Assembly (NCBI GenBank): GCA_017471705.1
Contig: JAFUSH010000052.1
Coordinates: 14,869 to 78,868, forward strand
From: Alphaproteobacteria bacterium
GTDB taxonomy: Bacteria > Pseudomonadota > Alphaproteobacteria > RF32 > CAG-239
Reading direction: 5' to 3'
DNA length: 64,000 bases
A program made the position numbers and the translations under genes. The notes under the pieces are model-generated. The model saw nothing but the letters and a program-made list of their open reading frames with translations, searched no databases and was not told the DNA's origin. Positions 1-44,681 of the stretch are shown here, piece by piece. How positions within the stretch are numbered: the stretch's first letter is position 1; every line of letters starts with the position of its first letter.

Positions 1-40
1 TTCTTAAATCGGCCTATATTCTTAAATGTTAATTCATATA

Positions 41-2085: not shown

Positions 2086-2090
2086 TGATT

Positions 2091-2726: not shown

Positions 2727-2728
2727 AC

Positions 2729-19267: not shown

Positions 19268-19858
19268 ATGGTAGCACCTATTATTGCCGCCGTTGCCGCT
19301 AGTGCAGCGCTCGGCGCGATTGGCTCGCTTGCACAAAACAAGAGCCAGATTAAACAGTTAAAGCAACAAGCTGCGCTCAAAAATCTTGAGGGTGATATTT
19401 ATGAAAAAAATGCGCACATGCAGGCAGAGGCTGACAGCTACAATGAAAGTGTGGCCAGAAACGAACGCAACGAAACGTTGGCGCGCTTGAGGGTAGCACA
19501 AGCACAAAGCGGTGTTACCGGTGGCACTTTGCTTGAAATACAAATGCGCAGCGAACAAGAGGCCGAACTTGATGATATGATGGCTCGTTACAATAATCAC
19601 ACAAAGTATGTGGCCACAATGTATGAGGCTCAAAAATCAAGATCAGAGGCACAGCAACTTTTGGCTAATGCTAAGAGCTTAAAGAAAAACAGGTGGTTTA
19701 ATGCTATTTTGGCAGGCGCAAATAGCGGTATGTCAACGGCAACAAGTCAATATTTATTCAGTAACAGCGGCAGCACAAACGGTGTGGAAGATATGAGCGG
19801 TCAATCGAGCGGTTGGAATCCGTCAATGTCTGCGCCTGCAGCCAAACCGGCAAGATAA
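19268..19858 (+). CDS. internal virion protein (T7 gp14 slot, 196 aa)
   Basis: N-terminal hydrophobic segment followed by coiled coil. Same size and position as T7 gp14. Confidence 0.6.
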   Translation: MVAPIIAAVAASAALGAIGSLAQNKSQIKQLKQQAALKNLEGDIYEKNAHMQAEADSYNESVARNERNETLARLRVAQAQSGVTGGTLLEIQMRSEQEAELDDMMARYNNHTKYVATMYEAQKSRSEAQQLLANAKSLKKNRWFNAILAGANSGMSTATSQYLFSNSGSTNGVEDMSGQSSGWNPSMSAPAAKPAR

Positions 19859-19869
19859 GGAGTATTAAA

Positions 19870-21444
19870 ATGGCTATGAATAACACATATACGCGCCAAG
19901 TGCAAGCTGCACCGACAGATCTTAATCCACATCAGAACTATGTGGAAGAGTATGACGCAATGAACGAATTGGTGCAAAACGCCGTTGCAACCGGCCAGAA
20001 TATTATCAATACCTACGCAAAAGCGCGTGATGATAATGAGCGCGAAACAACAAAATTACTTGTTGATGAACGCAATGAAAAGCTGAAAAATGCTATGCGT
20101 GAGGTGCAGCTCAATCAAGATCCGGCAACATGGGAAGAAAATTACAAGCAGCGTTTTGATGAAATTGATGAAGAATACAAAGGCCGAGTGCCGGCTAGAT
20201 ATACCGACGAATACAACCGGTGGAATGAATTAAATGACAGTCGCAACTTGATGGATCTACGCTTTGCTCAAACGAAAAAAACGCAGGAAATAAACCGCGA
20301 ATTGTTGTTTGATCGGGTGGAACGTAACGCTAAAAATGCGATTGGCGCTGACGCCGGAACGATGGCCATGCTTGACGCTGATACCAAAAACAGCTTAGCC
20401 GGTGCCTTAAAGCGCGGCCAGATTAGCCGATTACAATATGACAAAGCTATGCGCAACTATGGTGAAAGCAAAACATACAACACGCTTTCAGATCGGTTAA
20501 TCAGAGATCCGGAGGGATTAAAGCTTGACTTGGAAAAAAATGCGTATGGCCTGAACGCTAAAGATTTGAAGAGTTGGAAGTCAAAAGTTGATCATGAATT
20601 GAAGATAAACGACTTAACAAATAAGACGGCTGAAAATAATCAAATTGAGGCGCAGGCTTTGACAGCGATGGAAATGATTAAAAATAAGCAGCAGCCGCCA
20701 CAAACATTGCTTGATCAATTACCGGAAAAGACAAAAGAGGCAATGCAAAAAGTGCAGTTTTATGCCGTTACCGGTGATGATGTTCCGACGGACACACAAA
20801 CATACGGCTTTTTGAATGATATGCGGCAGAATTATCCTGAACGGTTTAAGAACTTGAATTTGTATGATTATGCCGGATCTTTAAGCGGTGAGGATTTACA
20901 AGCCTTACGCTATGCGCAGCAGTCAATCGTGATCGGTTTGGACGGTAAAGCAAAGGTTAATCCGACAATTAGCCATAACGATCAAGTGCTGAAAGTAGCA
21001 CATAGCAGCTTAGGATTTAAGCAAAACAGTCAAGAAGCTTATGATTTTGACAGGCTTTATGATGGTGAAGTGCGCGCTATTATCAATGAAAAAGGCCGTA
21101 TGCCGACACAAACGGAGCAAGATGATATTATCAAGCGCCTGCGCAAGTCGGTGGCCACACGTCGTGACTGGTGGTTTGACGGTGACAAAGAGGCTCGCAC
21201 TTTGGAAGAAGATGACAGGCCTTATGTTAAAATGGAAGACATTGCGCCGAACACTAAAGAGGCGATCCTAAACATTATCAAAAACGATAAAAACTTTAAC
21301 ACGCTGCTCAAGCTTAACGATGAAGAACAAAATCAGATGGTTGAGGAAATGGCCGGCGTTTATGAGCGGCCGAATGAGCAATGGAATGACGCCACAAGAA
21401 ACGTCATAAACAGATATTTGGATATTGCAAGCAGGAGAAAATAA
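19870..21444 (+). CDS. internal virion protein (T7 gp15 slot, 524 aa)
   Basis: ATG at 19870 follows an AAGGAG RBS. Helical, charged protein. Synteny supports the call. Confidence 0.6.
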   Translation: MAMNNTYTRQVQAAPTDLNPHQNYVEEYDAMNELVQNAVATGQNIINTYAKARDDNERETTKLLVDERNEKLKNAMREVQLNQDPATWEENYKQRFDEIDEEYKGRVPARYTDEYNRWNELNDSRNLMDLRFAQTKKTQEINRELLFDRVERNAKNAIGADAGTMAMLDADTKNSLAGALKRGQISRLQYDKAMRNYGESKTYNTLSDRLIRDPEGLKLDLEKNAYGLNAKDLKSWKSKVDHELKINDLTNKTAENNQIEAQALTAMEMIKNKQQPPQTLLDQLPEKTKEAMQKVQFYAVTGDDVPTDTQTYGFLNDMRQNYPERFKNLNLYDYAGSLSGEDLQALRYAQQSIVIGLDGKAKVNPTISHNDQVLKVAHSSLGFKQNSQEAYDFDRLYDGEVRAIINEKGRMPTQTEQDDIIKRLRKSVATRRDWWFDGDKEARTLEEDDRPYVKMEDIAPNTKEAILNIIKNDKNFNTLLKLNDEEQNQMVEEMAGVYERPNEQWNDATRNVINRYLDIASRRK

Positions 21445-21445
21445 A

Positions 21446-24400
21446 ATGGGTGTATTTGATGAAATTAAACAGCAAGAACAGCAGAGCTTGAACACAAGTG
21501 ATCAAGCTAGTGATCAAGCTGCTGCGCCGGTATTAACGGAGAATGTTTTTGCGCCGGTTGCAACCGATAGTCAAACTATGAAAGATAATCAAATACAAGT
21601 GTTTTCTCGTGATTGGCGTCAACAAAGCGATGATGATATGGAGCAACATATTGCCGCCGGATTTATTAAGCGTGAAGACGCCGATCCGGTGCGTTGGAAG
21701 TCTGCGATTGAAACCGCAAAAGGCTTGGGTTATGACGAAAAAAGCTACGATTTGATTTATGATGACTTGCCGGAATATCAAAAACAGTGGAAAGAAAAAG
21801 AATTGCGCCGTTATTATGATAATTGCGACACAATGAAAAATATGTGTATAACTGATAAAAATTTCTTGAACACGCTTGATGATAAAACAGCTAAAGATTT
21901 GTATGACATCAATTTTAATTTGGCCGTATATGGTCAACCGAATGAGCCGAATGCGGTATGGGCGTTTGGTCAAAGAGTTGCTTATCAAACCGGTCGGAGT
22001 GAGAAAAGCATACAAACCGGAAAACTGGCCGGCAATATTCGTGGCAAGCGTGGTGATGAACGCGCTGCAGCGATTGCCGCATGGCGTAAAGAACATGATC
22101 AGTTAATCAGAATGCCGGAAATAGATACCTCCGGCTATGGCGTAGAAGATTTTGTTATGGCAGCAGCAGATCAGTTGCCGATTATGGCCAGAACAACGGG
22201 CGCAGTTGTTGGTGGAACTCTCGCCGGTGGTGCAGCCGGTGCCGGTGTTGGCTCGGCGGTGCCGGTAGTCGGAACAGCCGCCGGTGGTGTGGCCGGTGCA
22301 AAGGCTGGTTGGGTTGCCGGCAACGCTTTGGCCGCTTATGAAAGCTATCAAATTGAGGCAAACAGCATGACTGAAAGCCTTTTGGATATTACTGATAAAG
22401 ACGGTCTGCCGCTTGAGGATTGGGTTGTTGACGGTGCGTCATACGCTTATGGCGCGATTGCAGCCGCGATTGAACTTGTGCCGATGAAAGCAGTAACAAA
22501 CACAATCCCCGGAATGAAAAACATCACAAAGGTTGGAATTAAGCAGGCTCTTAAAGAGGCAGTAAAAGACAAGACAAAGCGGCAAGTGATTATGCAGATC
22601 ATTAAAGATTATGGTTTGGCGGTTGCCGGTGAAAGTGCCGAAGAGGCTGCGCAACAATTTACACAGGCTGAATTTACACGCGGTGCAAAGGCTTTAATGA
22701 ATGCTTTGTATGACACAAGTTTTGAACAGCAATCTTTTGCAAATGATTTGGCTGAAAGCGCGGAGGCTGCTATACAGGCCGGTAAAGCAACCGCAGTGAT
22801 GGCCGGTGCAAGCAGTGCAACAAGAGTGCGGCCGGAATTGCGCACATGGCAACGCGATCAGGAGGCAAAGCAACTTAAACGCGGTCAAGAGGTAAAGGCA
22901 CAATATGACGCGCAGCGCATGGACGAAGTGGCAGAGGCCGCGCAATCGTATATGCAAAAACCAAGTGCAGAACGAGCAACGCTCAAAAAATATATGCAGC
23001 AAGCCAAAAACAGCAGCGTTTATCAAGATATTTATATGTCGGCCGATGACGCACGCGCGGTGATGATTTCAGAGGCGGTGCAGAAAAATAAAGCTGCGCT
23101 GCAGGAAAGCGGCTTATATGATGATATTGAGCGGCAAATTGAGCAGGCTGATCAACTCGGAACGCCGGTGCGTATTGCTTTTGAAACTTTTGGCTCGGAA
23201 ATTATGGCCAGTCAAGAGCTGTATGCTGCATTTAAGGACGTTATTAAAACTTATGAGAACGGTATCACTATGCAAGAATTGCGCGTGGAGGCCGAACAAC
23301 GGCAGCAGGTGCGCAACAATATTGAAAAAGCAGCCAAAGACAATGCCAGTGATTATGAATACGCTTATCAGTATATTTTGGAGCAAGAGGTTGCCGGTGG
23401 TATTGATCAACAACGCAGAGGCTATACAGCAGAAATGTTGGCCAAAGTTATGACTTATATGGCCAAAGAAACAAAACAGCCGATCAATGAAGTCATGGCA
23501 AAGTATGCGCCAAGTTTTGAGCGCTCTTTTGATGGTAGTGTTGGTGGTGGCCAGACGGTGCAAGATATTATCAGCACAATCAGAAAATCGGCGCAAGATA
23601 AGGAAGTGCAAAACCTTATGAAACGCGCCGGAGAACTCGGCAAGCGTGACGCACGCAAGATTGCAAAGATCTTAGGCAAACATTTGGATAATGCAGCCGC
23701 CGGAGATGTGCAGCAATTTATGCGTGTTGTTAATGCAATCGGCGATATGAAACTCAATATTGAGGCTATGACTGACGAAGATATTGCAAACAGTTTGGAT
23801 AGTTATACAAAATCCGGTGATGTGCAACTCAATATTAAGCGTGATGACGCAGATAGAGTAAAAAGCGGCATTTTCTCGGCTAGTGAAAAGGCTTTGAGCG
23901 ATATACAGGCAAACGGTCAAGACAGCGATTATGTTGTGGTTGGCGGTGGCAGAATACCGGTGCAATATCAAATTGTTGAGCTGAATAATATGATCACCTC
24001 ACATGATGACGCCGGTGCGGTCAATGAGAACTATCCGCAAGAGCTGCAACCACGCGACAGATCCAGATCGGCAAGCGATACGCAAATTGCAAGTATTGTC
24101 AATAATTTTGCGCCGGAACGTGTCGGACAGGCAGAAATTGCAACAGAGGGCGCGCCGATTGTGACGCCGGAGGGGTTTGTTGCCGTCGGTAACGGCCGCG
24201 CAATGGCTATCCGTCAAGTGTATAAAAATGCCGAAAAAGCGCAAGCATACAAGGATTATTTGGCCGGCAAAGGTTATGATCTGAACGGATTTGAGCAGCC
24301 GGTATTGGTGCGCAGATTAGCCATAGAGATGAATAATGAGCAGTTAAAGGCTTTGGTTGATGACGCAAACACGGCCGGAACTATGCAATATTCAGACAGT

Positions 24401-27400
24401 GAAAACGCTTTGCGTGACGCTGATAAAATGAGCGGCAATTTGCTTGATTTGCTTGATATGGAGGCAGATATTGACAGCGCAGCAAACAGACGCTTTTTGA
24501 ACGCATTTTTTGCCGAAGTTGTGCCGACGGCCGAACGCAATGCTTATTTGGATAAAGACGATAAGATTACACGCAAAGGTGTTGAGCGCGTTGAAAATGC
24601 TATTGTGGCCAAGTTATTACCTGACGCCAGAATGCTCTCAATCTTGGTGGAAAATCCTGACAATAATATCCGCAAAGTTACAAAAGAGTTAGCAAAGGCT
24701 GCGCCGGCAATTATCTCGTTTGAGAATGATATTGCCGCCGGCCGGATCAATGCTGATTATTCTATTGCCGGTGATGTTACAGGCGCGGTGGATTTACTCA
24801 AACGCGCAAAGGATCGCAATGTTACGGCAGCAGAGTTTATTGCTATGCGTGATATGTTTGAAGAGCCGATTTCCTCAAGCACGCAAAATATGGTGCAACT
24901 CTTTGAAAAATCTACCGGTGCGACTGATTTCCTCAACAAGATCCGCAGCTATATCCGGCAAGCCGGCGAACAAGGCGATATGAGCCAAGATAATATGTTT
25001 GGTATGCAGCCGGTGAGCAAAACGGAATTATTGGATAATTTGGCCAGACAAGAGAGTTTGTTTCAATTCGCCGGTGTGAAAGCACAAACCGCAGCGATGG
25101 ATCAGCTTGAACAAGCCAAGCGGCTTGAGGCTCAAGGTGTTGACGCTGAACAGATCCGGCAGCAAACAGGTTGGTTTAAGGGTGCTGATGGTAAATACAG
25201 ATTTGAAATATCTGATAAAGATCTTAGTATTGGTGAAAAGTATCACAGCGCAAAATGGAGATCAGAACACCTTGTTTATGCAGGTCTTAGTCACAATCTT
25301 GATGGCATTATAAAACACGATAAATTATTTGCCGCATATCCGCATTTACGGAAGTTGCAAGTTGAATTTTCTTTCCAGTTACCGGAGGGTGTTTTAGGTA
25401 ATTATGAAGACAATCGTATTACGCTTTCAAATAAAATGGATCAGTCGCAAACACTTTCAGTTTTAATGCATGAAGTGCAGCACGCAATACAGGAATATGA
25501 GAACTTTGCGCGTGGTGGTAATAGTAACACGATAGCAGAACAAATTGAGTATTATAAAGAAGTTATCCGTCGGTATAATACTTCGGCTGACGCGGTAGAG
25601 CTTGAGAATGCTATCGATAACTATGAATTTATTGGTGACGTTATCAATACAATAGAGGTATCAGAAAAACCTGAAAAAGTCATGAAAAAAGCATGGTATC
25701 GTGAGCATGTATTTGGCACGCCAAGAGGCAAAGCAGCTAAGGCTTTCTTGCAAGAAAAAGCTCAAAACTATATTGACGATTTGCGCGATAAATATAAAGC
25801 CGCTGGCAATGTTGTTTATATGGATTATCTTGATATTCTGCAAAATGGCAACATGAACGATCTGAAAAAGCAATATAAATCTATTCAGGCCAGAATTAAA
25901 CGTTTGCGCGAAAAAGCTTTTCCGAAAGAATATACAGCTGCACATGAGTGGATTGCTCGGTTTGAGGACGGTAAATTGAGTAGCCAAGAGTTATATAAGC
26001 GCTTGGCCGGTGAAATAGAGGCACGCAATACACAAGCACGCCTTAATATGACGGAAGAAGAACGTAAAGCAACGTCACCGGAAAGCACTCAAGATGTGAA
26101 AAATGCTGACGCTATTGTTGTATTTGATGACGGCACGGCGATGGATTATGAGCCTAAAACTCAACGTAAAGGCCATAAAGTGCATAGTGTTTTTGATTTA
26201 AGAGTTGGCGATAAGACGGCAATCGGTGATGTGCAAGAAATTAACGCCGAAAACCGCACAATCAAAATCAATGATAAATTACACTCTATGCTTATGCTTG
26301 ATACGCAGATACAGTATAAAGGCTTAACTGTATATGATAGCCAAGAGCAAAAAGAGGTTGTTGATATGCCGGAAGAACAAACGCCGGCAGATGTTAAAAA
26401 GGCAACCGGTGATCTATCGGTTATAAAGGAACAAAAAAAACATAATACTGAATATAACAAAGCGGCGATAGAATATTTTGGCCTAACAAATAAACTTTCG
26501 GAAACCGGATATATTTTGACTGACGGTAACCTTTTGGATTTGAGCGGCAAAAATTTTGGCGGATCGCCGAATATCAGATCACTTGATCATAGAGATGTGT
26601 TAAAACCTTTAGAGCCGTGGCACGCTAAAATGGAAGAATTTATCAATTCGGGTAATATTCGCTATTTACCAGAGGGGGATAAATTACTTATGAGCAATAT
26701 GCCGACGCCGGCACAGCTCAAGGTTATTGAGCGTATTATTGATAAAACTGGCGGCAATATTACGATTGAGTTAATGGGCGACGCTAACCGTTGGGGAATG
26801 AATAAAAATGATTTCTACAATGAATATACAAACACATCATTTAATCAAGTAAAGCGTGATATAAATGCTTTTTATAAAGGTGATGGTGTGCGTGAAATTA
26901 CGCGGTATTATCAAAAAACACCGGTAACAAACGCCAAAATCGCCAAGCTACAAGAGGGTTTGCAACAGTGGGAAAAGTATCTTGCCGAAGTTGTTGAGCC
27001 GAATAAATACGGTTGGTATGCTGACGCAGTGGAAGATAACCGGAAAAACGCAAAGCGCAAGATTGCTCAATTTAAGAAAGAGATTAAAAAAGAGCAAGAA
27101 AAAGCCGCCGTGCCGGTTGGCGAAAAGTTGTATGCAACGCATAACATGAGTTTGGCCGGTGTTAAAGGCGCATTAAATCTTGGCGGTTTAGCTATGCCAT
27201 CACTTGCTTTACGGAAAGTATCACAAGGGAATATCAATCAATTTGGCGACATTGTTTTTGTGGCTAATGAGAAAATGGTTGAGCCAAGTCGAACAACGGA
27301 TATTTTTGACCGTGACGCATGGACACCAAGCATTGCTAATTCTATGCGCTACGAATTACTGCCAAGCGGTAATACATTTATAAAGAATGTGTTGGCTAAA

Positions 27401-30400
27401 GTCGGCAGAGAAAATGAGCTGTCGGTATTTGTGTATAATATCAGCGACAATCTCGATACGCCAAAAAGTAATGATATGGCACTGGAATTATATGCACTTG
27501 ACAAGGGAATTGAGCTTGATCCTTATGAAACGCTACACAGCCAAGAATATCTTGACTGGTATGATGAAAATATTATGGGTAATTCAGAGCCATATTTATG
27601 GACTGAAAATGCTAGTAATACGGACATGGTGGCCAAGAAATTCACGCTTGATAATATCATGAAGATCTTAAAAAAACAGGAACGCGCAGGCGGCGGCTTT
27701 TTAGGTGATCAGGTTTTCAGCGCAAGAAATTTGCTTAACTTTATGGCTAAAAAATATAAAAATCTTGACGAAGTGCGCAAAGATAAGCACAAACTTGTAT
27801 CTGCCGAAGAGCAAAATGCTTTCTTTCAAAAGATTGATGAGAGATTTTGGGATTTGGCCGCAGAGCTTAAACTTGAAGATCGTGACTATAATTACGGCAG
27901 CGATCGCATGGGGTTGGCTGTTGCGGCTATCAATGCGGACAATGGCGATGATGTTATTAAAAAACGCTTAGCCGGATATTATCTTGACACTTCTGACGCA
28001 GCAGTGGCTAAAGTTAAAGAATTTAGCAATATGATGAAAGAGGTATTAACCGATTATTTTGAGGTTAAACCGCGTCGTGTTGTCAATTTTAGTGAGTTTT
28101 CCGGTGTAATTATACCGGAAGGCAAGGAATATGACGACGTGGCCAAGCAGCTTGAGCAGGAATATATTACGGTTGAGCGCGTTAAAAAAGGTGACACCGC
28201 TGATTATGAGCGCGCTTTAATGAATATCCAAGCGAATGCTGAAACAACGTTTTTCCAAAATCAAAAGATTGATATGGAGGCGTTGGGTGCATATACGCCG
28301 GCAGAGCGCAAGATCACTCTTTTCCGCAACAACAATCTTTCAACGCTTATTCATGAAAGCGGCCACTATTGGCTTGATATGTTGCAGCAATTTGCGCAAC
28401 TGCCGACAGCCAGTGAAAAGCTGAAAAATGATTGGGCAACCGTTAAAAATTGGCTCGGCGTTGGCGACGATAACGTGGTCACAGAAGAGCAGCACGAAAA
28501 ATTTGCGCGCGGCGTTGAAAAGTATTTTTTGACACGTAAAGCACCATCTGCCGGCTTAGCCAAAATATTTGACACTTTCCGGCGGTGGCTCGTTTCGGTG
28601 TATAAAGATGTGAAAGAGCTTGACGTTGATTTGAATGATGATGTTGAGCGCGTTTTTGATCACATGCTCGCAAGTGAAAGTGAGATTGAAGAGTATGCAC
28701 AAGCGCAGCAATTTGCCGACATGATGGAGGCAAGCACCAAAGGCTTAAGCAAAGCAGATCTTGAAAAGTATGCAACGCTTACCGAACAGGCAATGACAAT
28801 GGCCAAGGATAAACACTTGACGGATAAGGTGGCTTTAATCCTGAAAGAAGAAACGGAGGCCTACAAAGAAAAGCAGCAGCAGCTTAAAGATCAGGTTTTG
28901 GAAGAGTGGAGCAAGGATAACACAAACAAAGCTGTTTATATTCTGGTGACAGGCGAAGTGCCGCACGGTCACTTAGATATTAAGATCAATACAGAAGAGC
29001 TGCGCAATTTGCTTGGTGAAAACTTTGATAAATATGCGACTTTTGGCGGCCGGCCGATTTTTGCCGATGACGGCATAAGTTTGACTGATTTGCAGGAATT
29101 TACCGGATTAACAAAAGATCAGGTAAAGGCTGCGCTTTTGACAGCGCGGCAGCGTATGCGTAACTTTAAGCAAGCACTACAACGCCGCACGCATGAGGAG
29201 CTTGGCGATCCGGTAACCTATGATGATGTGCAAAAGCAGGTGATTGCTGCTTATTATAACGATAAGCGCGCGCAACTGTTGGATTTGGATCTGAAAAGTT
29301 TGGCCGGCGATAACGCAAAGCGACAAGCTGTATCTACACAAGGCTTTAAGAAGTGGGCAACCGACACAATCAGCCGGATTGCAATTAAAGACTTAAACCC
29401 TGAACAATACAGCAGAGCCATGCAATTTGCCGGTGATAAGGCGATGGCTGCACTTAATCACGGACAGCGTGACTTAGCTTATAGGTTTAAAATTCAGCAG
29501 ATCCGCAATTTTGTGCTGTTTCGTGAGGCTAAAGACAGACAGGCCGAAGTTGAAAGCACACTGCGCCGGTTGAAGCAGATCGGCAAGCAGGAAGTCAACC
29601 ACGATATTGATCAGGTTTATCAAGACGCCGTGCGCGCACTCTTAAGCCGCTTTACTCTCTCCAGAGCCTTAACGCAAAAGGCAAAAGAACGGCTTGGTAA
29701 TTTGAGCGCATGGATCTTGGAGCAACGCAGCAACGGCTATGATATTGTTGTGCCGGCAGATTTGTTGGAGAAAAACAACGGCACAAGCTATGCAGAGCTG
29801 ACGGTTGATGAATTTCTGACACTTGGTGAAAGCGTCAAAAGTTTGGTCACAAACGGCCGCGCAATCAAACAATTTGAGCTTGAGGGTGAACTGATTGAAA
29901 GATCTAAACTTTTGAATGAGTTTGCCGCGCAACTGCGTAAAACATACAAAGGCCGCGATATTCAACGCACCGGTAAAAAACATTTTAAGGGTATATCTGA
30001 AATGCTTGCACCGGCCGACGCAGCAATCGTGATGTTTGGTGATTTATCTAACCGGATTGACGGCTATGACACAAACGGTGTTTTTCACCGGTTATTCTTA
30101 CGGCCGATGACGGAGAGCCAAAACAGAGAAAATGAACTGCTGCGGCTCTACGGTGGCAAGATGAAAGAGCTGCAAGAGGCATTACCGGAATGGGTAAAAA
30201 AGCAGTTGTTTGAGAATGTGGCGGGCGCAAAAGATGTGCTTGGCGCGGATTATACGCGCGGCGAATTGATAAGCATTGCCTTAAATATGGGTAACTTAAG
30301 CAACCTGCAGCGTTTGCAAGACGGTAATGGATTTTCTGACGAACAGCTTGCATGGGTGGCCGGCACGTTAAGTCAAGAAGAATGGGATTATATTCAAGGT

Positions 30401-31996
30401 GTATGGGACACGCTTGAAAGTATGTATCCTATGCTTGCAGAGCACCATAAAAAAATGAGCGGCTTGGACATGGATCATGTTTTAGCCTCTCCGGTGGTCA
30501 CGCCGTATGGTGTTTATAAAGGCGGTTATTTTCCGTTGTTCTACGACAGATCGGCTGAAATAGAGGCGCGACGCAATAACAGTTTAGAGCAAGCACTGCT
30601 TGAAAGTGATTACGGCCGCGCAACAACAAGCGCCGGATATACAAAACAACGTCAAAACATTGTTAAAGAGGCGGTTAAGTTTGATCTTGGATTGATACAG
30701 CGGCATTTAGCAAGCGCAATTCATGATCTGGCTTGGCGCGGTAATATCCGGCAGATGTGGAATATGGCGAATAATCCTGAATTTATGGCCACAATGGACG
30801 GCTATTTACATGAAAGCTATCGGCAGCAGCTTATGAAGTTAATCAAAGATTTGGCAAACTCTACAAACAGAGAGGCTAGAGAGATGACTTTTGCTGAACG
30901 TATGGCGCGCAACATGCGTGTTGCACGCACCACAATCGGCTTAGGCTTTAGGGTTAAGACTGCGGTTAAGCAGCTCACCGGTTTTGCTCAATCTACGGCT
31001 ATTATGAAACGCTACGGCCATAAAAATAAAGGCAAGCACAGCGGCACATATTGGCTCGTTAAAGGCACAAAGGCTTTCGCAAGCGATAAAGCGACACGTG
31101 AATGGTGCTTGGCAAACAGCGGAGAGCTGCGCACGCGCTTGAATAACATGGACGCAAATATTGCGGAGGCCATGAAAGGTGTTGCCTCAAAGCAATCTAA
31201 ACTGCAGAAGATCGATGAAAGCATTTATAATGCCGCCTTTTGGGCAATCGGCAAGGTTGATGTTTTCACTGCAGAGAGCACTTGGTATGGCGCATATTTG
31301 CAGGCAATCAATGACTTTGGCTATAAACATAAGGACGCGGTATTTTATGCCGACAGAGTTATGATTGAAAGTCAAGGCTCCGGTAACCTGAAAGATAAGC
31401 CGGCTATGCAACGCAAAAACGAATGGGAAAAAATGTTTTTGATGTTTTACTCACCGTTTAGCGGTATGTATGGCTTATGGACTTCGGTCATGCGTGACAT
31501 ACGCGATGGTAAAGAACGCAGCAAAGCACTTGCTGATTTGGCGGTGGCTATGTGTCTGCCGGCTTGGCTTGACGCATTGGTTGACGGTGATCAACCGGAC
31601 GGCGATGATGATTTGGCTGAATGGTTAAAATTCTTCTTGCTGCGGCCGATAATGTTTTGGGCGTCAACAATGCCGATCACGAGAGATTTAGCAAGCTACT
31701 TTGAATTTGGCCGCGCTCAAGGCTTTTTCGGTGATACATTTAAGGCAATAGCAGATCTGCCGAAAGTTATCACAAGCGATAAATGGACAGCCGGCAAGCG
31801 TGTTAATACAGTGATGAACGCAACAGCGCAAATTGCCGGCACGCTCGGATATAATATACCGATCGGAGGACAGCTCGCTGACTGGACGCAATGGCTGACA
31901 GATGTGGCCGCCGGTAATATCAAAATCGAAAGTCCTATGAATGTGATCTGGGGCGTTTGGCGTGGTAAAGACGGCAAGCCGCAAGATAAAAAATAA
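21446..31996 (+). CDS. giant polyvalent internal virion / ejection protein (3516 aa; T7 gp16 slot)
   Basis: Single uninterrupted ORF. ATG at 21446 follows a GGAGAAAATAAA RBS region and the previous stop. Gly-zipper hydrophobic block at ~22189-22340. ParB-like ...NYPQELQPRDRSR...VAVGNGRAMAI at ~23935-24325. Zincin motifs HEVQH (25469-25483) and HESGH (28352-28366). Confidence 0.85.
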   Translation: MGVFDEIKQQEQQSLNTSDQASDQAAAPVLTENVFAPVATDSQTMKDNQIQVFSRDWRQQSDDDMEQHIAAGFIKREDADPVRWKSAIETAKGLGYDEKSYDLIYDDLPEYQKQWKEKELRRYYDNCDTMKNMCITDKNFLNTLDDKTAKDLYDINFNLAVYGQPNEPNAVWAFGQRVAYQTGRSEKSIQTGKLAGNIRGKRGDERAAAIAAWRKEHDQLIRMPEIDTSGYGVEDFVMAAADQLPIMARTTGAVVGGTLAGGAAGAGVGSAVPVVGTAAGGVAGAKAGWVAGNALAAYESYQIEANSMTESLLDITDKDGLPLEDWVVDGASYAYGAIAAAIELVPMKAVTNTIPGMKNITKVGIKQALKEAVKDKTKRQVIMQIIKDYGLAVAGESAEEAAQQFTQAEFTRGAKALMNALYDTSFEQQSFANDLAESAEAAIQAGKATAVMAGASSATRVRPELRTWQRDQEAKQLKRGQEVKAQYDAQRMDEVAEAAQSYMQKPSAERATLKKYMQQAKNSSVYQDIYMSADDARAVMISEAVQKNKAALQESGLYDDIERQIEQADQLGTPVRIAFETFGSEIMASQELYAAFKDVIKTYENGITMQELRVEAEQRQQVRNNIEKAAKDNASDYEYAYQYILEQEVAGGIDQQRRGYTAEMLAKVMTYMAKETKQPINEVMAKYAPSFERSFDGSVGGGQTVQDIISTIRKSAQDKEVQNLMKRAGELGKRDARKIAKILGKHLDNAAAGDVQQFMRVVNAIGDMKLNIEAMTDEDIANSLDSYTKSGDVQLNIKRDDADRVKSGIFSASEKALSDIQANGQDSDYVVVGGGRIPVQYQIVELNNMITSHDDAGAVNENYPQELQPRDRSRSASDTQIASIVNNFAPERVGQAEIATEGAPIVTPEGFVAVGNGRAMAIRQVYKNAEKAQAYKDYLAGKGYDLNGFEQPVLVRRLAIEMNNEQLKALVDDANTAGTMQYSDSENALRDADKMSGNLLDLLDMEADIDSAANRRFLNAFFAEVVPTAERNAYLDKDDKITRKGVERVENAIVAKLLPDARMLSILVENPDNNIRKVTKELAKAAPAIISFENDIAAGRINADYSIAGDVTGAVDLLKRAKDRNVTAAEFIAMRDMFEEPISSSTQNMVQLFEKSTGATDFLNKIRSYIRQAGEQGDMSQDNMFGMQPVSKTELLDNLARQESLFQFAGVKAQTAAMDQLEQAKRLEAQGVDAEQIRQQTGWFKGADGKYRFEISDKDLSIGEKYHSAKWRSEHLVYAGLSHNLDGIIKHDKLFAAYPHLRKLQVEFSFQLPEGVLGNYEDNRITLSNKMDQSQTLSVLMHEVQHAIQEYENFARGGNSNTIAEQIEYYKEVIRRYNTSADAVELENAIDNYEFIGDVINTIEVSEKPEKVMKKAWYREHVFGTPRGKAAKAFLQEKAQNYIDDLRDKYKAAGNVVYMDYLDILQNGNMNDLKKQYKSIQARIKRLREKAFPKEYTAAHEWIARFEDGKLSSQELYKRLAGEIEARNTQARLNMTEEERKATSPESTQDVKNADAIVVFDDGTAMDYEPKTQRKGHKVHSVFDLRVGDKTAIGDVQEINAENRTIKINDKLHSMLMLDTQIQYKGLTVYDSQEQKEVVDMPEEQTPADVKKATGDLSVIKEQKKHNTEYNKAAIEYFGLTNKLSETGYILTDGNLLDLSGKNFGGSPNIRSLDHRDVLKPLEPWHAKMEEFINSGNIRYLPEGDKLLMSNMPTPAQLKVIERIIDKTGGNITIELMGDANRWGMNKNDFYNEYTNTSFNQVKRDINAFYKGDGVREITRYYQKTPVTNAKIAKLQEGLQQWEKYLAEVVEPNKYGWYADAVEDNRKNAKRKIAQFKKEIKKEQEKAAVPVGEKLYATHNMSLAGVKGALNLGGLAMPSLALRKVSQGNINQFGDIVFVANEKMVEPSRTTDIFDRDAWTPSIANSMRYELLPSGNTFIKNVLAKVGRENELSVFVYNISDNLDTPKSNDMALELYALDKGIELDPYETLHSQEYLDWYDENIMGNSEPYLWTENASNTDMVAKKFTLDNIMKILKKQERAGGGFLGDQVFSARNLLNFMAKKYKNLDEVRKDKHKLVSAEEQNAFFQKIDERFWDLAAELKLEDRDYNYGSDRMGLAVAAINADNGDDVIKKRLAGYYLDTSDAAVAKVKEFSNMMKEVLTDYFEVKPRRVVNFSEFSGVIIPEGKEYDDVAKQLEQEYITVERVKKGDTADYERALMNIQANAETTFFQNQKIDMEALGAYTPAERKITLFRNNNLSTLIHESGHYWLDMLQQFAQLPTASEKLKNDWATVKNWLGVGDDNVVTEEQHEKFARGVEKYFLTRKAPSAGLAKIFDTFRRWLVSVYKDVKELDVDLNDDVERVFDHMLASESEIEEYAQAQQFADMMEASTKGLSKADLEKYATLTEQAMTMAKDKHLTDKVALILKEETEAYKEKQQQLKDQVLEEWSKDNTNKAVYILVTGEVPHGHLDIKINTEELRNLLGENFDKYATFGGRPIFADDGISLTDLQEFTGLTKDQVKAALLTARQRMRNFKQALQRRTHEELGDPVTYDDVQKQVIAAYYNDKRAQLLDLDLKSLAGDNAKRQAVSTQGFKKWATDTISRIAIKDLNPEQYSRAMQFAGDKAMAALNHGQRDLAYRFKIQQIRNFVLFREAKDRQAEVESTLRRLKQIGKQEVNHDIDQVYQDAVRALLSRFTLSRALTQKAKERLGNLSAWILEQRSNGYDIVVPADLLEKNNGTSYAELTVDEFLTLGESVKSLVTNGRAIKQFELEGELIERSKLLNEFAAQLRKTYKGRDIQRTGKKHFKGISEMLAPADAAIVMFGDLSNRIDGYDTNGVFHRLFLRPMTESQNRENELLRLYGGKMKELQEALPEWVKKQLFENVAGAKDVLGADYTRGELISIALNMGNLSNLQRLQDGNGFSDEQLAWVAGTLSQEEWDYIQGVWDTLESMYPMLAEHHKKMSGLDMDHVLASPVVTPYGVYKGGYFPLFYDRSAEIEARRNNSLEQALLESDYGRATTSAGYTKQRQNIVKEAVKFDLGLIQRHLASAIHDLAWRGNIRQMWNMANNPEFMATMDGYLHESYRQQLMKLIKDLANSTNREAREMTFAERMARNMRVARTTIGLGFRVKTAVKQLTGFAQSTAIMKRYGHKNKGKHSGTYWLVKGTKAFASDKATREWCLANSGELRTRLNNMDANIAEAMKGVASKQSKLQKIDESIYNAAFWAIGKVDVFTAESTWYGAYLQAINDFGYKHKDAVFYADRVMIESQGSGNLKDKPAMQRKNEWEKMFLMFYSPFSGMYGLWTSVMRDIRDGKERSKALADLAVAMCLPAWLDALVDGDQPDGDDDLAEWLKFFLLRPIMFWASTMPITRDLASYFEFGRAQGFFGDTFKAIADLPKVITSDKWTAGKRVNTVMNATAQIAGTLGYNIPIGGQLADWTQWLTDVAAGNIKIESPMNVIWGVWRGKDGKPQDKK

Positions 31997-32082: not shown

Positions 32083-34764
32083 ATGACTATTCCTGCAAGT
32101 ATGCCGGCAAAGGCCACCTATCTGGGTGATGGGGTAACGGTTAATTTTCCGGTGCCATTTATATATTTTGAAAATACCGACGGAACAAAGCAAATAAAAG
32201 TTATTCTTGCCGATGAAAATGGTGAAAATGAAGTTGTGCAGGTAGAAAATACCGACTTCACAATCACCGACGCCGGCCAAAGTAACGGAACATTAACGAT
32301 GTTAAGCGCGCCGCCGGAAGACTATATTTTAACAATCGCTTATGATATACCGGTTGAACAACTCGTTGATTGGGAGGAGTTCGGTCGCTTACCAAGCGAA
32401 AGTATAGAGGCTGCGGTTGATAAAATAACGGCAATTATAAAACAAATTTATGAAATATTGGGGCGTTGCGTTAAGGTAACAATAAGCGGCAAACAAACCC
32501 CGGAAGAGTTGCTTGCTACAGTTTATGAAAAATTAGACAGTGCAAGTGCGATTGCGGCGCAGGCAATCACTGCTGCTGATAATGCCACAACAGCGGCTAA
32601 CAATGCAACCGCGGCGGTGGCAAGTGCAGAGCAAACGCTTGAAAATGTTACAGCTTATGTTGACGCGGCAGAGGAAGAGATAAGAGAGATTAAAGCCGCA
32701 GCTGAAAGTGAGATTGACACTAAGGTTACAACCGCAAAAGGTGAGATTGACGGTGCAATATCCAGTGCTATTGAGGACGTTGAGGCGGCAGCTATTGCGG
32801 CGGCTCAAGAAGTTATTGACAGTGCGGCTGAAAGCGCAACGGAAACAGCTAAAGCAAATCTTGACACTTATGTTGATGAAACAGTTGAGCCAAGTTTGCA
32901 GTCGTTTGTTGACGCGGCGCAGGCACAAGCCGGTAGTGCGTCATCTTCTGCCTCGTCTGCGGCACAAACTTTAAGCACTATTCAAACAACAGCCGCGCAG
33001 TTTGATACGAATTATACAACAAAACTTTCGGCATTTAATCAGAACGCAACGGATAAGACAACAGCTTTTAACAGCAATGCGTCTGACAAAACAACGGCGT
33101 TTAATGATAATGCGGCGGCTAAACAAGCTCTTATTGACACAAGTGCAACCGCGGCACAAAACGCGGCAAGTGCGGCGGCAACAAGTGAAACAAACAGCGC
33201 AAATTCAGAAGAAAATGCGTATAAATCGGAATTGAAAGCGGCGGCTTATGCTGAACGCGTTAGAAGTGAGGGAATCCCTATGAGCATTATTGAAAACAAA
33301 AAAATTGAAATATCCGGCAATACGGTAAAACTTTACTGGCGCGATCCGCGTGACACGATTATTGACGGCTTTGTCTTATCGTCTTGGAAAAGCACAACGA
33401 TTGTGAAAAAACAAGGTAGTGAGCCGGAAGATATTGACGACGGCGATATTGTCGCAATCGTGACAACGCGCAATCAATACGCAAATACACCGCTTGAAGA
33501 TACACAAGCAAACGCAGAGCAATGGCATTACCGTGCATTTCCTTTATCGGTTAATGGCGTTTATTCGCTTGATAAGCGCAACATTTTCGGCACGGTGCTA
33601 TATGGGTATAGGATAAACAATGTTGATGGTGTGCCGTCATCTAAAGTTGAATATTTGCCATATTGCGATAACTACTTTTATGATCCGTGTGTTATGGATT
33701 TTCTCGGTGATAAATTTAACTGGGGTGACTGGGAAAAAGCCTTTTTTATCCCTAAACCTTGCTTGTTATCAACCGCCGGAACGGTTACATATTACCTTTC
33801 AAAGGATAACTTTAACTATCGTGAGGACGGCGTTACGGCAAGTGATGTGTCCAATTCAGGCGTAAATGGTAATTTTATGTGTGAGTTTCCGTCTATCTTT
33901 GTTAAGGTATGGGAAGAAAAGAACTATATCAACGTGCTTGTATCAAACAAAAAACTTGATGACGATTTTGAATGTTGGGCAACCAAAAAATCTGACGGCA
34001 CTTATGCTGATAACTTTTATTTACCGATGTTTGAGGGAACAAGTATCAATAATGTTATGCGCTCTATTGCCACAAACGGCAAACCTACAGGAAGCTTAAA
34101 CGCAGAAACAGAGGCGACACACGCAACCGCAAACGGCACCGGTTGGAACACAACCACTTGGGCAGATGAAATGCTTATGATGTTGCTGTTTCCGCTGTTG
34201 TTTAAGTCAACAGACAGTCAAACGGTGTTAGGATATGGTGGCTCAAGTTCTTCAAGCGCGCTGACGGTTAATAATAATGCCGCACTTGATAAGGGTTTGA
34301 TGTATGGCACAAGCGCTGGCAGTGCCTATGGTATGACTTATTTAGGCTTACATAACTGGTGGGGGCATAGGTGGCGCCGTCCTAACGGTTTAATGAATGA
34401 TAACGGCAATTATAAATTTAAGCTGACACATAGCACAGTGGACGGCTCAACCGTTACCGGTTATAATCGGAGCGGCAACGGCTATATTTCAAGCGGTGTT
34501 AGACCGCCGGAGGCAAGCGGTAGTTATATCAATTATTATCAGCCTATCGGTAAATTTGGTATAGTGCCAAAGCTGACAAGCGGCTCAAGCACAACACACT
34601 ATTGCGATGGTATGTGGACGAATAACGGACAACTGGATCAGCTTTTTCTCGGTGGCTCTGTTAATTACGGTGCTCTCTGTGGCGTTTTCGCGTTTAATGT
34701 TTACAACCTACCTTCGAACACTTATTGGTACTTCGGCGCGTCGCTCTCTTATCATCACCTTTAA
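32083..34764 (+). CDS. tail fibre / receptor-binding protein with C-terminal DGR variable region
   Basis: N-terminus ATYLGDGVTVNFPVPFIYF is like the T7-type fibre N-domain. An Ala/Thr-rich coiled shaft follows. The C-terminal ...GGSVNYGALCGVFAFNVYNLPSNTYWYFGASL pattern resembles C-type-lectin-fold VR sequences. Occupies the gp17 slot. Confidence 0.85.
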   Translation: MTIPASMPAKATYLGDGVTVNFPVPFIYFENTDGTKQIKVILADENGENEVVQVENTDFTITDAGQSNGTLTMLSAPPEDYILTIAYDIPVEQLVDWEEFGRLPSESIEAAVDKITAIIKQIYEILGRCVKVTISGKQTPEELLATVYEKLDSASAIAAQAITAADNATTAANNATAAVASAEQTLENVTAYVDAAEEEIREIKAAAESEIDTKVTTAKGEIDGAISSAIEDVEAAAIAAAQEVIDSAAESATETAKANLDTYVDETVEPSLQSFVDAAQAQAGSASSSASSAAQTLSTIQTTAAQFDTNYTTKLSAFNQNATDKTTAFNSNASDKTTAFNDNAAAKQALIDTSATAAQNAASAAATSETNSANSEENAYKSELKAAAYAERVRSEGIPMSIIENKKIEISGNTVKLYWRDPRDTIIDGFVLSSWKSTTIVKKQGSEPEDIDDGDIVAIVTTRNQYANTPLEDTQANAEQWHYRAFPLSVNGVYSLDKRNIFGTVLYGYRINNVDGVPSSKVEYLPYCDNYFYDPCVMDFLGDKFNWGDWEKAFFIPKPCLLSTAGTVTYYLSKDNFNYREDGVTASDVSNSGVNGNFMCEFPSIFVKVWEEKNYINVLVSNKKLDDDFECWATKKSDGTYADNFYLPMFEGTSINNVMRSIATNGKPTGSLNAETEATHATANGTGWNTTTWADEMLMMLLFPLLFKSTDSQTVLGYGGSSSSSALTVNNNAALDKGLMYGTSAGSAYGMTYLGLHNWWGHRWRRPNGLMNDNGNYKFKLTHSTVDGSTVTGYNRSGNGYISSGVRPPEASGSYINYYQPIGKFGIVPKLTSGSSTTHYCDGMWTNNGQLDQLFLGGSVNYGALCGVFAFNVYNLPSNTYWYFGASLSYHHL
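33031..33129 (+). repeat. Three tandem 33-nt (11-aa) repeats within the fibre shaft
   Basis: AFNQNATDKTT / AFNSNASDKTT / AFNDNAAAKQA, with synonymous differences between units. Confidence 0.7.
34641..34746 (+). repeat. DGR variable repeat (VR)
   Basis: Ungapped 106-bp alignment to 34929-35034 with 12 mismatches. Eleven of these lie opposite TR adenines. Confidence 0.9.
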
Positions 34765-34928: not shown

Positions 34929-35034
34929 GCTTATTCTCGGTGGCAATGTTAATAACGGTGCTATCTGTGGCGTTTTCGCGTTTAATGTTAACAACCTACC
35001 TACGAACACGAATTGGAACAACGGCGCGTCGCTC
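34929..35034 (+). repeat. DGR template repeat (TR)
   Basis: Adenine-rich invariant copy. In the VR frame it reads LILGGNVNNGAICGVFAFNVNNLPTNTNWNNGASL, with many AAC/AAT codons. Lies 124 nt upstream of the RT gene. Confidence 0.9.
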
Positions 35035-35157: not shown

Positions 35158-36291
35158 ATGAAAACATACAACGGATTGTTTGAAAAAATTGTTGATGAGA
35201 AAAATATCCAAAAGGCTATATTAAAAGCCTCTCTCGGCAAACGTAAAAAGTCAAGCGTCCGGCGCACGTTATCTCACTTAACCGAAGTGGCGCACGATTT
35301 AAGCGAACAGCTTAAAAATGGAACGTGGCGACCGTTGGATATACACCAAACCACGCAAATAAATGACGGCGTGGAGCTTAAAAAGCGGTATATCGTATGT
35401 CCGAATTTTGCACGTGAGCAATGCGTCCATCACGCTATTATGAATATTTGTGAGCCATTATTCAGAAAAAAGTTTTATAAATATAGTTGCGGCAGTGTCA
35501 AAGGGCGCGGCGGCGACCAAGCAAAGAAGTATATTGCAAAAATTATTAGGAAATATCCGGCGAAAACAAAGTATGTAGCAAAACTTGATATTAAAAAATT
35601 TTTTCATAATGTTAAGCCAAGCTATGTATTTCACGAGATACGCCGAACAATCCGCGATAAAAGAGTGTTGTGGTTGTTTGCTCTTATCCTACGTGCCAAT
35701 AAGCAAATTATTGACGGCGTGACAGTTAAGGGTGGTATTCCTATCGGCTTTTATACAAGTCCTATTTTTGCAAATATTTTACTTAACGCTTTAGATCACT
35801 ACATAAAAGAGGTTTTAGGCGTTGAGTTTTATGTCCGCTATATGGACGATATTGTTATGTTTAGCCCGAATAAGCGCAAACTTAAAAAGGCGTGTCTTGC
35901 AATACAAGGTTATATTGAGGCTCGTAAAATGAAACTCAAACCGACGTGGCAGATACACCGCTTTAGGAGTGTTAATTTTATCGGGTATCAATTCAAACGC
36001 GGTGGGCAAGTCCGGCTTAGAGATAGAGTATTTTTGAAATCTATCCGGCTGATCCGGCGCGTTTCTCGCAAAACAAAGCTGACGATATATGATTGCCTCC
36101 GTGTATTAAGTTATATGGGGCGATTTAAGGCGGCGCATACATACGCCGCATTTAAGTTGCACATTTCGCCGTATGTTAATATCAGGGAATTACGCAAGCG
36201 CGTATCTCGGCACGATAAAAAGTTAAACCAGTTAGAAAAAGAAAGGAAAGCTAATGCAATACAGGAAAGCGGAAAGCCGGCAACAGCCTAA
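35158..36291 (+). CDS. DGR reverse transcriptase
   Basis: RT motifs KRYIVCPNFAREQCVHHAI, SCGSVKGRG, LDIKKFFHNV, GIPIGFYTSPIFANILLNALDHYI and YVRYMDDIVMF (YMDD at 35839-35850). Adjacent to TR/VR. Confidence 0.9.
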   Translation: MKTYNGLFEKIVDEKNIQKAILKASLGKRKKSSVRRTLSHLTEVAHDLSEQLKNGTWRPLDIHQTTQINDGVELKKRYIVCPNFAREQCVHHAIMNICEPLFRKKFYKYSCGSVKGRGGDQAKKYIAKIIRKYPAKTKYVAKLDIKKFFHNVKPSYVFHEIRRTIRDKRVLWLFALILRANKQIIDGVTVKGGIPIGFYTSPIFANILLNALDHYIKEVLGVEFYVRYMDDIVMFSPNKRKLKKACLAIQGYIEARKMKLKPTWQIHRFRSVNFIGYQFKRGGQVRLRDRVFLKSIRLIRRVSRKTKLTIYDCLRVLSYMGRFKAAHTYAAFKLHISPYVNIRELRKRVSRHDKKLNQLEKERKANAIQESGKPATA

Positions 36292-44130: not shown

Positions 44131-44220
44131 AATGGTTCTCCATAAATTTTGTTAAGGCAAACGCGCCGATAATAATAGCCACGCCTGCAACAATAATGAT
44201 TGTGTTAATTGACAATGATT

Positions 44221-44681
44221 TTACTCCCTTGCTGTGATGTCTTTTTTGAAATAAATGATGACAGTGCCGGAATTATTACCTTTGGCCGCTCTACCGGTAG
44301 CCGGATCCACAAAGCTAACTCTGCCGGATAAAATCTCGTAAAAGAATTTTTTGTAAATGTATTGATGGAAAGCGCGGCAGTCTGTGCAATTTGAGGGCAA
44401 TACCATGACGACAATGGCACAATCGCCGTTGATGACTTCATCATAAGCTTTGGCGATAAAAGCGGCTTTTTGGCTGAATGGTGGATTACAAAAGACACGT
44501 TCCCCCCCCCCCATGAGGTTTGCAGGGCGTTAATACCCTGATCAAAATACAAGCCGCGTGGTGCTTTGCAGTTGGCGGTGGTGCAAGCAGCGTCAAGTGT
44601 GAAATTAAAAACACGATCAAGCTGCCGATAAAGAAAATCCGGTGTTTCAAAGCCGTCGTTACCTTTAACATTCATCTTCAT
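44221..44681 (-). pseudogene. Dam-family N6-adenine methyltransferase with poly-G(11) tract (OFF state, different wrong frame)
   Basis: C run 44502-44512 has 11 residues. The N-terminal frame continues as ...SWGGGNVSFVIHH... (158-aa ORF). The catalytic half GGGERVFCNPPFS lies in another frame. Confidence 0.8.

Follow-up and report, generated by a model that had tools for sequence, protein, structure and literature searches.

RESULTS

A giant open reading frame occupies the gp16 slot of a podophage genome

The window analysed here, 64,000 nucleotides of contig C42 from an alphaproteobacterial metagenome-assembled genome (MAG), holds a phage genome of 42,131 bp wrapped on itself. Between the genes for the internal virion proteins and the tail fibre lies a giant open reading frame (ORF), whose parts are listed in Table 1. 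It opens at an ATG behind AGGAG, contains no internal stop codon and, given the genome length, takes up 25.0% of the genome, so that the single uninterrupted frame filling a quarter of the genome, as read by the original prediction, was borne out. Its proposed placement in the slot of T7 gp16 was sustained by a gene order matching that of Bordetella phage BPP-1 and by homology of its C-terminal block to Bbp10 and to gp16 of Pseudomonas phage AF. Its proposed polyvalent nature was sustained by three domains (ddrB-ParB, LPD23 and PBECR5) that all score above the Pfam gathering thresholds. The ORF very probably encodes the counterpart of Bbp10, the protein of BPP-1 at the T7 gp16 position (IVP-D, for internal virion protein D), built as a polyvalent protein. 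Two conserved blocks enclose a central cargo of about 1,060 aa, which consists of three exchangeable cassettes (A, B and C), and a short tripeptide ending in glutamine recurs at the joints.

Frameshifts splitting the ORF, named beforehand as evidence that would speak against a single protein, were not seen. NCBI, ENA and Logan together supplied five or more independent assemblies (P0002 and L005–L008) with intact, near-identical ORFs of 3346–3520 aa, the two copies on C42 are identical throughout the giant ORF, and both conserved blocks gave dN/dS values of 0.03–0.08 against four relatives, indicating strong purifying selection. Considering the identical copies, the intact orthologues in independent assemblies and the low dN/dS, we conclude that the reading frame is not an assembly artefact. 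Megablast of the giant ORF against annotated phages returned nothing and tblastn only distant relatives. A scan of IMG/VR with the C block found no relatives, the whole protein matched no PDB sequence, and an NCBIfam scan gave nothing useful. Only four cysteines (aa 127, 134, 3221 and 3370) are present among the 3516 residues.

Table 1. Features of the giant ORF and of the adjoining retroelement. Positions are those of the window; a slash marks the joint. pLDDT, predicted local distance difference test score; VR, variable repeat; TR, template repeat; RT, reverse transcriptase.
Feature	Residues (aa)	Position (nt)	Strand	Remarks
Giant ORF	1–3516	21446–31996	+	3516 aa plus stop; Bbp10/T7 gp16-slot (IVP-D) ejection protein, polyvalent type (predicted)
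Conserved N block	1–1207	21446–25066	+	nucleotide breakpoint 25060–25066; dN/dS 0.03–0.06
Glycine-zipper hydrophobic segment	250–297	22193–22336	+	Gly/Ala-rich; 36-residue uncharged stretch; 8 GxxxG in 51 aa
Second N-block hydrophobic segment	327–354	22424–22507	+	
ddrB-like ParB/sulfiredoxin domain	835–958	23948–24319	+	Pfam PF18763, E 2.4e-31
Joint 1 (LFQ)	1205–1207	25058–25066	+	ESLFQ/FAG; N-block end; residues just upstream at pLDDT <50
Cassette A	1208–1573	25067–26164	+	LPD23 (to 1262), then zincin with helical insert
Cassette A zincin motifs	1342–1346 (HEVQH)	HEVQH 25469–25483; GEIEAR 26009–26026	+	
Joint 2 (KTQ)	1571–1573	26156–26164	+	EPKTQ/RKG; degenerate; pLDDT <50
Cassette B	1574–1823	26165–26914	+	unannotated enzyme-like domain
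Cassette B core	~1662–1817	26429–26896	+	~150 aa
Joint 3 (YYQ)	1821–1823	26906–26914	+	TRYYQ/KTP; cassette B end
Cassette C	1824–2271	26915–28258	+	charged linker, PBECR5 RNase-like domain, C-terminal part
Joint 4 (FFQ)	2269–2271	28250–28258	+	ETTFFQ/NQK; cassette C end; breakpoint 28249–28251; 32 aa upstream of HESGH
Conserved C block	2272–3516	28259–31993	+	1,245 aa; zincin head plus helical IVP-D body; PHROG 9880
Core zincin signature	HESGH 2303–2307; E2351, A2354, E2358	28352–28531 (HESGH 28352–28366)	+	HESGH plus EQHEKFARGVEKY helix
Two C-terminal hydrophobic segments	3330–3349; 3361–3379	31433–31582	+	
Tripeptide-bearing peptide				ANAETTFFQNQKID; candidate ligand of the zincin-head metal site
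Diversity-generating retroelement		VR 34641–34746; TR 34929–35034; RT 35158–36291		targets 3' end of tail-fibre ORF 32083–34764

The C block is homologous to ejection proteins of podophages

The C block aligns with Bbp10 at 28% identity (E 3e-98) and, end to end over 99% of the core, with AF gp16 at 27% identity (E 2e-127). It matches 50 phage records, from phages of Xanthomonas, Caulobacter, Vibrio and others, and the profile of PHROG 9880 (E 5e-236); farther homologues of the core lie in prophages of many diderm lineages. Bbp10 itself is listed as a homologue of T7 internal virion protein D (gp16) by Hardies et al. 2016 (PMC4819975, Table 2), who describe IVP-D proteins as hosts of cytoplasm-bound domains, with the virion RNA polymerase (vRNAP) of N4 as the extreme case. 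Bbp10 (2052 aa) sits in the same slot and the same gene order, and both phages carry a diversity-generating retroelement. The 27–28% identity to Bbp10 and AF gp16 (2213 aa) extends over ~1,250 aa and includes the zincin head, HE.GH...HE.FARG. Both homologues also share in the polyvalent build, since Bbp10 contains LPD22 and PBECR1 and AF gp16 the same LPD23–HEVQH module as the giant protein. The latter differs in being 1,300–1,460 aa longer, in its additional ddrB-ParB domain and in carrying three cassettes instead of one or two, and its N block does not significantly resemble the N-terminus of Bbp10 (best E 0.24). The 2,300-aa gp35 of the CP2-like Xanthomonas phage PhiXacm4-11 has likewise been treated as a core protein of the gp16 slot; core density is visible above the portal of that phage, and gp35 has no similarity to PDB entries (bioRxiv 10.64898/2026.02.16.706137).

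The likeness to T7 gp16 lies in the location of the gene, which follows gp14- and gp15-type genes and precedes that for the fibre, in the helical build and in a presumed role in an inner-membrane ejection channel. T7 gp16 differs in its length (1318 aa) and in bearing a lytic transglycosylase instead of cytoplasmic cargo. Coliphage N4 gp50, the vRNAP, is closer in size (3500 aa) and has a three-part plan with membrane helices near residue 250 and a central cargo. Its C-terminal domain (CTD), classed as an IVP-D homologue by Hardies et al. 2016 (PMC4819975), combines an HExxH subdomain with a large helical body that has no structural homologue (PMC13434306), as does the C block studied here. 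No RNA polymerase family was found in the giant protein by the Pfam, PHROG and NCBIfam scans, and the likeness to N4 stops at the three-part plan.

The polyvalent proteins of Iyer et al. 2017 (PMC5512222) are giant late-gene polypeptides that combine ddrB-ParB, zincin metallopeptidase (MPTase), PBECR and LPD domains, as this one does. They include P1 DdrB and the Helicobacter prophage protein jhp1044, which shows domain mosaicism at the level of orthologues, as does the giant protein. What goes beyond that description here is a chassis identified as an IVP-D core, swap breakpoints placed to within a few bases, and a specific joint tripeptide, proposed as the processing site. The likeness to P1 DarB and the Bcep22 proteins drawn by the original prediction holds as an analogy only: the Pfam and NCBIfam scans found in the giant protein none of the SNF2/DExH helicase or methyltransferase domains of P1 DarB or the Bcep22 gp75 type, and such domains occur only in remote matches that share the ParB domain (P0081 and P0088).

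Two conserved blocks with separate histories enclose a mosaic centre

A BLASTP map against 45 relatives divides the protein into a conserved N block (residues 1–1207), a mosaic centre and a C block that is conserved from residues 2269–2272 onwards. Synonymous divergence from the same relatives is 0.18–0.20 in the N block and 0.03–0.10 in the C block, and this several-fold gap implies that the two blocks have recombined independently and have separate histories.

The N block begins with a variable acidic and Q-rich leader (residues 1–79) and contains only two hydrophobic stretches, one within the glycine-zipper segment and the other at aa 327–354. The glycine-zipper segment, which is kept in P0018, P0040 and AF gp16 and weakly matches a tape-measure PHROG, is by analogy a candidate membrane-inserting element. 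The ddrB-ParB domain scores 108.8 bits against a cut-off of 27.6 and covers profile positions 4–120 of 121. Both elements had been read from the letters by the original prediction, and both were recovered in place, as were its two zincin motifs. The first zincin motif (HEVQH) proved to be part of a common LPD23-plus-zincin module, in which HExxH and a distal GE.E.R helix are invariant. The second (HESGH) is real and was placed correctly, but it is not cargo; it forms the invariant head of a core shared with Bbp10. The original prediction could name no motif in more than 2000 residues and thought several uncharacterised effector domains probable. About 2,000 of these residues turned out to be conserved chassis, that is, the N and C blocks, and only the ~1,060 aa of the centre qualify as cargo.

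In the C block, residues H2303, E2304, H2307, E2351, A2354 and E2358 are invariant in 60 sequences with identities down to 22%, and each of them is conserved to at least 90% in another set, of 47 sequences. The region has no Pfam match. Residues 700–1000 of Bbp10 served as a seed of the CLCA_X zincin-like family (Lenart et al. 2013, PMC3650047), and Iyer et al. placed the equivalent zincin domain at aa 2130–2448 of the N4 vRNAP (PMC5512222). An AlphaFold model of aa 2240–3439 (pLDDT 78.6, predicted template modelling score 0.60) shows the HExxH helix and the Glu helix behind a beta-hairpin, and after them ~1,100 residues that are helical almost throughout. It has no significant match among PDB folds (entries released up to 8 April 2026), and T7 gp16 and the N4 gp50 CTD are absent from its PDB fold matches. 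Its BFVD matches are 88 C-terminal parts of giant phage proteins (best E 8e-53), whose annotations name LPD, ART-PolyVal, MuF_C, 'nuclease' or 'crystallin motif' domains.

Both HExxH sites fit the gluzincin-type pattern of HExxH followed by a Glu on a later helix, and both are putative zincin metallopeptidases. Since each site lies within a set of residues that is invariant across 43–60 divergent homologues, neither is a chance match.

The centre consists of three cassettes that turn over between near-identical phages

Cassette A contains an LPD23 domain above the Pfam gathering score (E 1.5e-22) and then a zincin. Residues H1342, E1343, Q1345, H1346, Q1349 and E1352 show no variation across 43 divergent homologues, and neither do G1522, E1523, E1525 and R1527 of the distal helix; a variable helical insert lies between the two parts. 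The same layout of HExxH, insert and distal helix has been described for the metallopeptidases of polyvalent proteins (Iyer et al. 2017, PMC5512222). Sub-threshold Pfam matches on the HExxH comprise DUF6782 (22.4 bits, cut-off 27), PhageMetallopep and SprT. The best two PDB profile matches, both weak, are IrrE (E 0.042) and a neutral metalloprotease (E 0.05), and the highest-probability Foldseek match of the structure model (pLDDT 78) is a PprI/IrrE orthologue, again weak (probability 0.54, E 0.44). PI3K p85 and similar coiled coils were dismissed as the fold of cassette A, being attracted by the long coiled-coil insert. The residue patterns support the prediction of a zincin in cassette A, and the independent support, though weak, agrees with it. 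The module is very frequent, occurring in 2,715 giant proteins and on more than 530 IMG/VR contigs.

The core of cassette B is found in 1,169 representative clusters, among them stand-alone proteins of 147–350 aa. It has 16 invariant residues, including E1686, Y1689, D1698, S1700, R1711, D1714, H1715 and R1739, and neither cassette B nor its small stand-alone homologues gave a Pfam, PHROG or PDB match. Cassette B looks enzymatic and may represent a new family of enzymes in phage polyvalent proteins. Cassette C includes PBECR5 (Pfam PF18814) at aa 1892–1976 (E 1.6e-15) and groups cassette clusters K4 and K10; the PBECR5 match reaches 54–58 bits against a cut-off of 25 and covers only profile positions 12–100 of 239. 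Among the cassettes of relatives, cluster K1, a common one (in P0053, P0008 and others), is 445–600 aa long, has an HEWWH of its own and no Pfam match, and is perhaps a third type of zincin.

Comparison with close relatives shows how sharply the centre is exchanged. In L005 and L006, nucleotide identity is 88–89% upstream and ~96–97% downstream of the swapped part, and in L007 the values are 97% and 98.5%. In all three, similarity breaks off within a few bases, at 25060–25066 (aa 1207/1208), 26158–26161 (aa 1572/1573) and 28249–28251 (aa 2268/2269). At least four different centres occur in phages whose N and C blocks are 91–99% identical (P0002; P0003–5; P0006–7; P0008–14), and cassettes differ even where both blocks agree at 97–99%. 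For a census of 68 family members the centres were split at the joint motif and the pieces were clustered, which gave 22 cassette types in 31 architectures. The motif-delimited pieces correspond to single known units (MuF_C, ART-PolyVal, LPD1, LPD3 or PBECR5) or to unannotated ones. Since mosaicism at the level of orthologues had already been described for Helicobacter jhp1044 (PMC5512222), cassette mosaicism as such is a known phenomenon.

An aromatic-glutamine tripeptide marks the joints

Across the family, the N block nearly always closes with [L/F]FQ and the core always starts after [F/L/Y][F/Y]Q, ~32 aa ahead of its HExxH. A test of motif density is partly circular, in that two motifs per protein had defined the centre, and a motif-independent breakpoint test was used instead. 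By this test, 163 of 448 internal BLAST boundaries lie at most 6 aa from a motif, compared with 12.6 expected, the sequences being related and the counts therefore not independent. The tripeptides of the giant ORF are encoded as TTG TTT CAA, TAT TAT CAA and TTT TTC CAA. Since the codons differ and the flanks are unrelated, the motif is conserved at the level of the protein, and a recombination (crossover) signal in the DNA was rejected because codons and flanks differ from site to site. An internal FFQ at residues 2126–2128 was also rejected as a joint; it is missing in P0005, and K4 and K10, the pieces on its two sides, form one cassette in other relatives.

The same tripeptide is found far beyond the close relatives. 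Bbp10 has FYQ 31 aa ahead of its HESGH, and its PBECR1 cassette lies between an LFQ and an FYQ; the tripeptides of Bbp10 are LFQ 167–169, LFQ 587–589 and FYQ 766–768. Prophages with 23–29% identity, labelled Fibrobacteraceae, Paraglaciecola, Rhodobacterales, Limnohabitans, Parasutterella and Geminicoccaceae, keep LFQ, FFQ or YYQ 27–37 aa ahead of HExxH, and further distant prophages retain the Q with an aromatic residue at P3. In an independent set from IMG/VR, ...Phi[F/Y]Q/FAG precedes the LPD23 module; other lineages have ...[R/K/L][F/Y]S/FAG at this place, and a stand-alone gene for the module starts M/FAG. In both structure models the joints lie in predicted flexible linkers with a pLDDT <50 and no secondary structure, as seen for joint 4, with the exception of Q1207, which opens the first LPD23 strand. 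Neither the domain borders of N4 gp50 nor the region upstream of its HELVH carry the tripeptide.

DISCUSSION

Cleavage at the joints or an uncut chain

Among the internal virion (ejection) proteins of a BPP-1-like podophage, the giant ORF product is probably the largest, a Bbp10 homologue of polyvalent build. By analogy with T7, N4 and P1, a few copies would be stored above the portal and would leave the particle before the DNA. The glycine zipper of the N block may then anchor the chain in the inner membrane, like the N-terminal domain of N4 gp50, whose membrane-spanning helices at 224–278 have been validated in nanodiscs (PMC13434306). ParB, cargo and C block would enter the cytoplasm and refold there, and the delivered enzymes could target nucleic acids, proteins or defences of the host within minutes of the start of infection. 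Cleavage by the core zincin after the joint Q might finally free the cassettes, a step that we regard as possible and not far short of probable. Recombination could in that case insert any cassette with the tripeptide at its end, and phage effectors would have a general system for their delivery and release.

Processing by the MPTase has been predicted for polyvalent proteins (Iyer et al. 2017, PMC5512222), and the scanned ORFs of the phage yielded no further peptidase. We tentatively propose that the Bbp10-type ejection protein is a self-processing polyprotein in which the tripeptide serves as the recognition site of the core zincin and is cut after Q in the cytoplasm. The main rival, to which we assign a comparable, likewise tentative probability, is that the same chassis-and-cargo protein is never cut: the whole chain would be ejected and stay tethered to the membrane like beads on a string, with the tripeptide as a hinge or folding cap and with the core zincin serving encapsidation or attacking a host target. 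N4 gp50 is the precedent for an uncut chain. It has the same three-part plan and a conserved HExxH, and it is packaged and ejected unprocessed (PMC5512222, PMC13434306), so that an invariant HExxH alone does not imply self-cleavage. Unprocessed N4, however, lacks the tripeptide at the equivalent sites. P1 DdrB, a protein with both a ParB domain and a zincin, is known to undergo processing (PMC5512222). Further points against a mere hinge or cap are that the tripeptide is present whatever the flanking domains, in linkers of low pLDDT, and that its spacing to the core HExxH stays fixed at 27–37 aa across 23–29% identity. That the model has the joint 1 Q open an LPD23 strand, and that S replaces the last joint residue in other lineages, speaks in turn for an uncut chain.

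Several further points weigh against the processed ejection protein as we propose it. Joint 2 is degenerate here and carries no aromatic residues where relatives have FYQ/RKG or YYQ/SAFAG, and AF gp16 is without the canonical tripeptide; both facts favour the uncut chain. Packaging, ejection and topology are all read by analogy, and the link to T7 gp16 is taken from Hardies et al. 2016 (PMC4819975). An hhalign comparison of the C-block profile with the N4 gp50 CTD was not significant (probability 2.9%, E 0.016), with the HExxH strand and helix aligned correctly, and for this reason the relation to N4 is claimed as an analogy only. Because neither structure model has a significant PDB fold match, the zincin fold is drawn from motifs and weak matches only.

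The same protein might not be ejected at all and act instead as a late intracellular or lysis-released weapon, for example in superinfection exclusion or as a MuF-type polymorphic toxin against competing bacteria. We consider this improbable. The cassettes of relatives do include MuF_C, ART and RNase-like domains that are also found in phage-borne polymorphic toxins (PMC5576092), and the phage, having an integrase, is temperate. The gene nonetheless lies in the exact gp16 slot, between internal-virion and tail-fibre genes, the homologues of its core have been regarded as core or ejection proteins (PMC4819975 and the PhiXacm4-11 preprint), and the ORF that follows is the tail fibre and not a small immunity-like gene. 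Less probable still is a purely structural component of the ejectosome, or one resembling a tape measure, in which the enzyme-like modules are decayed relics. A mostly helical chain that matches no solved enzyme fold, and the partial coverage of the PBECR5 profile, would fit such a component, but both zincins and cassette B keep their catalytic-type residues unchanged in hundreds of homologues, omega is 0.03–0.08, and cassette turnover among near-identical phages is hard to square with inert spacers. That the long frame is an assembly or frameshift artefact fusing several genes has a negligible probability: the contig is a concatemer binned into a MAG and one homopolymer indel separates its copies elsewhere, but these are identical over the ORF, which is intact in at least five independent assemblies and under purifying selection.

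Polymorphic toxins offer a parallel for the joints of the self-processing polyprotein that we propose. Known border motifs are the VENN of CdiA and the PxxxxDPxGL aspartyl-autoproteolysis motif of Rhs proteins. As here, a short conserved peptide stands between a constant delivery part and exchangeable cassettes. The tripeptide differs from the toxin motifs in its aromatic-Q composition, in being repeated at several joints of one chain and in having an in-chain zincin as its candidate protease.

Polyvalent proteins (Iyer et al. 2017) and cargo-bearing IVP-D proteins (Hardies et al. 2016) were already known, and since the class is known, the gene is a well-resolved example and not a discovery. 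A description of the joint motif was not found in the literature searched. The main text of Iyer et al. (PMC5512222) contains neither 'linker' nor 'boundar', and 'cleavage' appears there only for RNA and in the reference list; the papers on BPP-1, OANV1 and PhiXacm4-11 hold no data on processing of the homologue. What the gene adds is that it ties the abstract class of polyvalent proteins to a concrete machine, the ejection protein of the gp16 slot, with chassis and cargo clearly divided. The turnover of cargo in otherwise near-identical phages would represent a phage–host arms race under way in bacteria of the rumen and gut. Cassette B draws attention to a widespread domain (>1,100 clusters) outside Pfam, PHROGs and PDB chain sequences, and together with it we consider the joint tripeptide, as a candidate for self-processing, the most interesting outcome. 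It provides a precise and cheaply testable hypothesis for the release of enzymes from giant ejection proteins. If the joints are cleaved, they would supply the missing cleavage site for the MPTase processing role predicted by Iyer et al., and the frame could be used as a natural scaffold for the delivery of proteins into bacteria by phage particles.

The phage genome and its host

As part of the same ejection-protein reading, the phage is most probably a BPP-1-like temperate podophage of rumen or gut Alphaproteobacteria. Contig C42 (80,052 bp) is a pure concatemer of 1.9 tandem genome copies without a host flank, and the bin that holds it is a MAG of 1.8 Mb with 39% GC. Since C42 has no junction to host DNA, the host assignment leans on the binning and on the prophage L008, whose giant protein is the closest named relative (92% identity) and which lies on a 346-kb contig of an alphaproteobacterial MAG from sheep rumen. 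By PHROG and Pfam matches, the two terminase genes (small, then large) are followed by portal and capsid, by tail tubes A and B, by an internal virion protein resembling T7 gp14, and by a 543-aa ORF ahead of the giant ORF; tail fibre, reverse transcriptase, endolysin and integrase come after it. This order equals that of BPP-1 gene for gene (bbp14, 13, 12, 11, 10, 9, mtd, brt), and the place of the giant ORF, behind tubular tail B, IVP-B and IVP-C, is that of the IVP-D ejection proteins.

The two genome copies on C42 differ by 11 substitutions, all 11 of them inside the VR (34646–34730), which indicates that the assembly captured two VR alleles. The sole other difference is a 1-bp indel at window position 2371/44502, which turns an ORF of 102 aa (2075–2383) into one of 158 aa (44205–44681). 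The 543-aa ORF (19813–21444) in the gp15/Bbp11 slot matched no transglycosylase or other family in the scans; among its slot counterparts, a transglycosylase is present in Bbp11 and PhiXacm4-11 gp34, and the annotation of AF gp15 reads 'endolysin'. Near-identical relatives also exchange the tail-fibre module. The window (32083–34764) and L007 have a single ORF of 893 aa, and the modules of L005 (20126–23659) and L006 (20384–23917) consist of ORFs of 325, 404, 63 and 351 aa, the last of which has Mtd_N.

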